Source: Hydrurus foetidus
Lineage: Eukaryota
Direction of reading: 5' to 3'
DNA length: 64,000 bases
Assembly: GCA_900617105.1 (NCBI GenBank)
Contig: UYFQ01000311.1
Coordinates: 1 to 64,000, forward strand
Positions 34,219 to 34,572 of the stretch are shown in pieces. Under the pieces are notes generated by a model, which searched no databases, was not told where the DNA came from, and worked only from the letters and a program-made list of their open reading frames with translations. The translations under genes were made by a program, and so were the position numbers. Positions within the stretch are counted from its first letter, which is position 1. The number at the start of each line of letters is the position of its first letter.

Positions 34219-34242
34219 TGGAATGCCTGCTCCAGTCAATTA

Positions 34243-34572
34243 TGTTGACGGATCTTCGGTTCAGCCGACACGTACGTGGGTGAGTGTACAGCGGTTGAAG
34301 AACGCTCGGTCAAGGCTCGTGAAATAAGCTTTGGGTTGTCAGTAATCACTTGTTAATTGACTGTGCTTCATCCCTGCTGAAGTCCCCGAGTCCCTTTCAA
34401 CGCAACAACAAAAGACATCCTACACTACTTCTTGAAGTACCGAGCCGAAGCACGGGTCCACACATCGTCGTCACGCATGCACGCACACACACACACACAC
34501 TAATCCGTACGTCCGTACGAATGCATAAGTACACAGATTGTGTTCGTGTCATAAACTAAGATATCTCCAACA
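34243..34572 (-). repeat. Copia 5' LTR
   Basis: Direct repeat of 28958-29287. Confidence 0.96.

Follow-up and report, generated by a model that had tools for sequence, protein, structure and literature searches.

The window analyzed here is a single stretch of 64,000 nucleotides (64 kb). A complete Ty1/copia LTR retrotransposon occupies positions 34572-28958 on its minus strand, and the feature that concerns us is the 5' end of that element. The component parts, including those shared with the close relative L001 and the distant relatives L002, L003 and L004 described below, are as follows.

34573..34577, minus strand: left copy of the target-site duplication TTCAC, read from the sequence
34243..34572, minus strand: 5' LTR, 330 bp, TGTTGG...TCAACA, identical to the 3' LTR
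34354..34363, minus strand: 10-mer within the LTR, preceded by CA; predicted self-primer and predicted first bases of the RNA, from its exact complement and the initiator reading (PMC4686930)
34340..34348, minus strand: inverted, imperfect copy of the primer, predicted by folding to form a competing local hairpin; base 34346 is variable in the family, with the other letter in L001
34233..34242, minus strand: primer-binding-site (PBS) position, exact complement of 34363-34354
34213..34228, minus strand: small hairpin including the gag AUG, predicted by folding and also present in L001
33034..34218, minus strand: gag ORF with a CCHC zinc knuckle (PF00098)
29354..33145, minus strand: pol ORF with protease-integrase-RT-RNase H order (RVT_2, PF07727); its frame differs from that of gag in this copy
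29288..29299, minus strand: purine-rich tract ending in GGGGTG and adjoining the 3' LTR; in L002-L004 the LTR is likewise preceded by this ending
28958..29287, minus strand: 3' LTR, identical to the 5' LTR and carrying the second copy of the 10-mer
28953..28957, minus strand: right copy of the target-site duplication TTCAC, read from the sequence

The insertion is young, since its two LTRs are identical and it is flanked on both sides by the 5-bp duplication. It has the hallmarks of Ty1/copia elements, namely two LTRs with TG...CA ends, a target-site duplication, a purine tract, and an RVT_2-type reverse transcriptase (PF07727 at Pol residues 780-1008) downstream of the integrase. The protease, integrase and RNase H of Pol were identified from motifs by eye; the integrase was recognized by its conserved D, D and E columns in an alignment, the Pfam rve model giving no match, and comparison of Pol to solved structures also gave none. 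The gag and pol reading frames overlap at 33034-33145 in different frames. By a simple pattern, Gag runs on into the protease in 48 of 61 knuckle-bearing relatives, the closest ones included, and the other 13 comprise truncated proteins, pattern misses, and one protein (P0005) with the same out-of-frame end. The frame difference is likely a lesion of the window copy, a programmed shift being a possible alternative. The hairpin at 34228-34213 lies over the gag AUG just past the PBS, and its 5' arm is kept in loose contig ends.

Several other elements and genes are present in the window. A gypsy chromovirus (14986-7243, minus strand) has near-identical LTRs and a chromodomain and is likewise young; no TGG follows its 5' LTR, and at the site, 14633-14598, a hairpin comes after a 12-nt palindrome, an arrangement reminiscent of the Conserved Hairpin Site of fungal GalEa elements. 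The gypsy gag region is present again, in diverged form, at 850-2430 (minus strand). Two long ORFs at 3306-7272 (plus strand) have no Pfam match; visual inspection of the second picks out motifs resembling RT and RNase H, and together they are possibly a DIRS-type element broken by the gypsy insertion. Host genes include an intron-rich seryl-tRNA synthetase (46696-52056, minus strand) and a leucine-rich-repeat protein encoded by a single ORF (41485-43008, plus strand). Sequence of this host, whose genes are intron-rich, occurs in freshwater, sediment and air samples. An exon of the seryl-tRNA synthetase has its best matches among environmental proteins, and cluster assignments of 20 Pol relatives of the Copia element name no organism. 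The Atlas clusters closest to the element's Gag and RT occur most often in Bacillariophyta, on few annotated members, and with these leads as the one aid to placement we infer that the host is a stramenopile.

Immediately after the LTR-terminal CA (34243) of the Copia element, the minus strand at 34242-34233 reads TAATTGACTG, and inside the LTR at 34363-34354 it reads CAGTCAATTA, the exact complement. The match is exactly 10 nt long, and its LTR segment starts 121 nt ahead of the LTR end; copies of this 10-mer occur in the window in the 5' LTR and in its 3' counterpart only. A sequence-only reading of this DNA had described such a complement after the 5' LTR, at a spacing of approximately 120 nt and with no TGG directly following the LTR, and each of these statements is borne out, the TGG being absent from the first bases past the LTR. 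Its estimate that the match would arise by chance roughly 3 times in 10,000 agrees with dinucleotide shuffles of the LTR, which hold the 10-mer in 16/50,000 cases (22/50,000 with offsets of 0-2 allowed), although the empirical background is somewhat higher, with 4 of 4,930 other element-internal positions having a 10-nt complement in the LTR. As in self-primed elements, the PBS is complementary to a segment of the element's own LTR and a tRNA site is absent. The gypsy element in the same window was used as a control and has an LTR complement of at most 5 nt. A second control was provided by 24 junction-motif matches in viral contigs, rejected as relatives because they are chance matches; none of the 24 has an LTR complement longer than 7 nt.

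The 10-nt match in the window might nonetheless be coincidental, or the product of a single duplication-inversion in the window family. The background rate just given speaks for this explanation, as do the number of elements scanned and the A/T-rich composition of the PBS sites in L002-L004. Given that many elements were scanned, the window match taken by itself is unusual and suggestive, not decisive, and it is the relatives that carry the case.

Relatives were sought among metagenome candidates using an integrase alignment built from 40 proteins picked for absence of RT, and three (L002, L003 and L004) were recovered from 216 candidates. Each of their contigs contains one LTR, with pol ending before it and gag starting after it, and L002 is a circular permutation. 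Their Pol proteins share 28-48% identity with that of the window element, depending on the segment, and the LTRs cannot be aligned. Because L003 is 98% identical to L004, the two are counted as one family. Placement of the LTR ends was visual, guided by the GGGGTG tract, the TGTT...AACA termini and where gag starts, with one LTR per contig and the complement noticed simultaneously. L002 and L004 have perfect 14-nt PBS-LTR complements that are reached in 1/20,000 and 0/20,000 shuffles, respectively, and the 14-nt complement of L003 was read by eye and then folded. The same test yields 7/20,000 for the window element and 4/20,000 for the 10-nt match of L001. In the window element, L001, L002 and L003/L004, the complement begins at the first base past the LTR-terminal CA. 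The letters of the 14-nt complements in L002 and L003/L004 are unrelated to those of the window element and to each other, and pairing between one family's PBS and another family's LTR does not exceed 6 nt.

The complement is thus retained despite sequence change in both of the independent distant families (2/2), and the compensatory PBS-LTR change that had been put forward as a check in related Copia families is present, in the form of perfect complements with other letters. That this apparent covariation comes from only two independent distant families, with LTR ends placed by eye, limits its weight and counts against self-priming. Chance or a one-off event is a highly improbable explanation and already largely refuted, since all three metagenome loci, representing two families, have a 14-nt match at the same place that shuffling almost never reproduces.

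L001 retains both 10-mers but differs at the three positions following the PBS; its LTR is 85% identical to that of the window element, and the conservation would lend weak support to self-priming. Loose contig ends of runs X9 and X20 show a PBS that is longer by one base, and contigs of run X3 show an LTR site likewise longer by one base, which would restore the match to the extra-base PBS; these variants come from contigs of 4 of the 24 listed runs, with the PBS and LTR variants on separate contigs and unphased. In the 40 variants listed from a total of 176, no change falls within either 10-mer, and this is not counted as support. Gag patterns yielded no relatives among 214 metagenome candidates and one among 6 from genome contigs, and five protein scans of viral contigs yielded none (0 of 69, 1, 79, 36 and 143). 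No further element 5' end was found in the genome carrying L001, and 401 genomes of that genome's family contain one more element, L011, whose 5' part lies beyond the contig edge. The Copia fragments L001, L005-L008 (G001) and L011 (G114) lie in bacterial genome bins, and the presence of these eukaryotic sequences there is most likely contamination.

A different explanation is that a host RNA, either a tRNA fragment or a small RNA, primes synthesis, and that the LTR pairing is only a stem, structural or regulatory, which masks the site. Copia elements primed by half-tRNAs are known (PMC6317226, PMC5445492), and the bases from 34235 onward bear a loose resemblance to the tRNA-Met site described for metazoan GalEa (PMC5445492). 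Nevertheless, TGG is present at the LTR edge in none of the five loci (0/5); the TGG of the window element is 7 bases from the LTR and is missing in L001. No tRNA genes were found within the 64-kb window. In an anticodon-loop pattern test, the only loop-like match of the window element fails in the anticodon stem and L001 has no match. The loop-only matches in L002-L004, whose stems are outside what the sequence could check, lend the host-RNA explanation some support. The sites of the three families are moreover unrelated, whereas a tRNA primer would impose a common site, and we regard priming by a host RNA as very unlikely. Complementarity to a tRNA had been named as something to exclude, and for the window element no tRNA 3'-end or half-tRNA pattern fits; this comparison is pattern-based, with the host's own tRNAs outside it, and L002-L004 give loop-only matches. 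Identity with the half-tRNA-primed Copia elements Osser, Bianca and FunCo1 was rejected, as the PBS-anticodon stem-loop fails in the window element and L001 by the pattern test.

A CA dinucleotide immediately precedes the LTR segment in each of the three families. The post hoc chance of this, from the CA frequencies of the three LTRs, is approximately 6e-4. Reported diatom transcription starts follow CAY(+1)A or TCAH(+1)W (PMC4686930), and a +1 on the first paired base, 34363, fits them as the predicted start. The oomycete initiator is YCAYTYY and mammalian starts are cited at the A (PMC3599244); a start at the A, in the mammalian manner, would be 34364. The initiator fit is good in L002 and L004, and in the window element GCACA matches only the looser CAYA. 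Rfam searches at the LTR gave nothing above noise. The initiator-like context in 3/3 families would fit the LTR segment as the predicted 5' end of the RNA.

The position of the RNA 5' end bears on a further explanation, in which the 10-mer lies in U3 and only its 3' LTR copy is present in the RNA, pairing with the PBS region to bring the genome ends into contact or to prime from a cut near the 3' end, so that the 5' end is not the primer. The 10-mer is indeed present in both LTRs, and complementarity and covariation would look alike in either case. Against a U3 location are the initiator-like CA that directly precedes the segment in every family, and the start of pairing at the first base past the LTR, as required of a primer 3' end; we consider such an arrangement unlikely.

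RNA folds were computed with the RNA starting at the A of the CA. The PBS-LTR duplex is part of the minimum-energy fold in four of the five loci (L001-L004), with mean pair probabilities of 0.93-0.98 at 37°C. The window copy favors a different structure: its duplex has a probability of 0.24 at 37°C, dropping to 0.10 at 20°C, and a local hairpin is better than the duplex by 2.4 kcal/mol, because 34348-34340 pairs with the primer. Position 34346, whose base strengthens this hairpin, is variable across the family, with the alternative letter at approximately 41%, 36% and 60% of contig depth in runs X1, X3 and X9, and L001 carries that letter at the equivalent position. As modeled, the competing hairpin would count against self-priming by the window copy, or would require a chaperone. 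For the two flanking duplexes of the kind seen in Tf1, the folds have no shared pair, albeit with inner stems in forced folds.

Directly established are the anatomy of the element, the exact PBS-LTR match, and an equivalent arrangement, in different letters, in two distant families. From these sequence features and by analogy with Tf1, we think it likely that this young Ty1/copia element primes minus-strand DNA synthesis using roughly the first ten bases of its RNA and not a tRNA. By the same analogy, transcription would start at 34363 or one base earlier (34364), and the 5' end of the RNA would fold back over approximately 120 nt onto the PBS, probably with help from the zinc knuckle of Gag. 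Cleavage after base 10 by the element's RNase H would then leave a free 3'-OH, and the reverse transcriptase would extend the freed primer into U5. In retroelements generally, the primer is copied during plus-strand synthesis. Here, such copying would renew the PBS with LTR sequence in each cycle, and because of this proposed renewal the two sites would stay matched while drifting.

The sequence-only reading had proposed self-priming in a Copia lineage, and the covarying complement in 2/2 distant families supports that proposal as an inference. Its premise that Copia elements are solely tRNA-primed is wrong, however, because self-priming has already been predicted for the plant TAR lineage (PMC6317226). 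In the work cited here, self-priming is demonstrated by experiment in Tf1 and is a prediction in Copia (TAR). The match is clean and covarying and the start prediction is sharp, and therefore Copia self-priming is directly testable with this element. If true, loss of tRNA dependence arose repeatedly, and LTR-finding tools that require a tRNA site would be expected to miss or down-rank such elements. The window element defines no new kind of system.

Self-priming is known from Tf1, in which the RNA anneals to the PBS through its initial 11 bases and is cut by RNase H after base 11 (PMC7175516), and in which two duplexes flank the PBS pairing (PMC10085805). Tf1 and Tf2 of Schizosaccharomyces pombe and the Tf1/sushi group are Ty3/gypsy chromoviruses, whereas the window element belongs to the other superfamily, having an RVT_2 reverse transcriptase with the integrase preceding it; membership in Tf1/sushi was rejected, as there is neither a Ty3/gypsy domain order nor a chromodomain match. 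The pairing here is 10-14 nt, and the three-duplex 'pretzel' of Tf1 is not evident in the folds.

Many long low-complexity introns distinguish the host genome here from those of the diatoms that host CoDi elements. Among the diatom CoDi elements, CoDi6 is the closest in character, the CCHC knuckle being as in CoDi6.2-6.5 (PMC2806351). The main text of that paper defines the CoDi groups without touching on tRNAs, priming or any primer-binding site, and its supplements may bear on primer sites. In largely open-access full text, we found no paper that ascribes self-priming to Copia elements of diatoms or other protists.

The HHCC integrase motif, which TAR integrases are expected to carry, occurs in none of the 38 Pol sequences (0/38) of alignment A3, comprising that of the window element and 37 of 150 relatives, at Pol residues 190-250 (about 32580-32400), and on this basis the lineage of the window element looks distinct. 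Fungal GalEa elements with a Conserved Hairpin Site are Copia elements without a tRNA PBS, but their site is a palindrome that pairs with downstream sequence and has no LTR complement, and they keep HHCC (PMC5445492). Identity with GalEa was rejected on the absence of HHCC and on a site unlike either a tRNA-Met PBS or the Conserved Hairpin Site. Hairpin priming has been speculated to be ancestral (PMC3601003).

A parallel within Copia is the plant TAR lineage, Houba and Osr-1 included, for which self-priming is predicted in 89% of 203 elements (Additional file 5 of PMC6317226), an earlier proposal for Houba and Osr-1 being cited in the same paper. Common to TAR and the window element are the Copia affiliation, a 5-bp target-site duplication and predicted self-priming; the host here appears to be a freshwater microbial eukaryote and not a plant. 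Copia self-priming is thus already in print as a prediction, and this protist element is probably a further lineage. An origin separate from those in TAR and Tf1, and hence convergence, is plausible. We lean, by a little, toward the view that a wide Copia lineage of aquatic protists, with an integrase lacking HHCC and a GGGGTG tract, evolved self-priming independently, as a third origin beside Tf1/sushi and TAR, through a 10-14 nt fold-back from the initiator without the pretzel.
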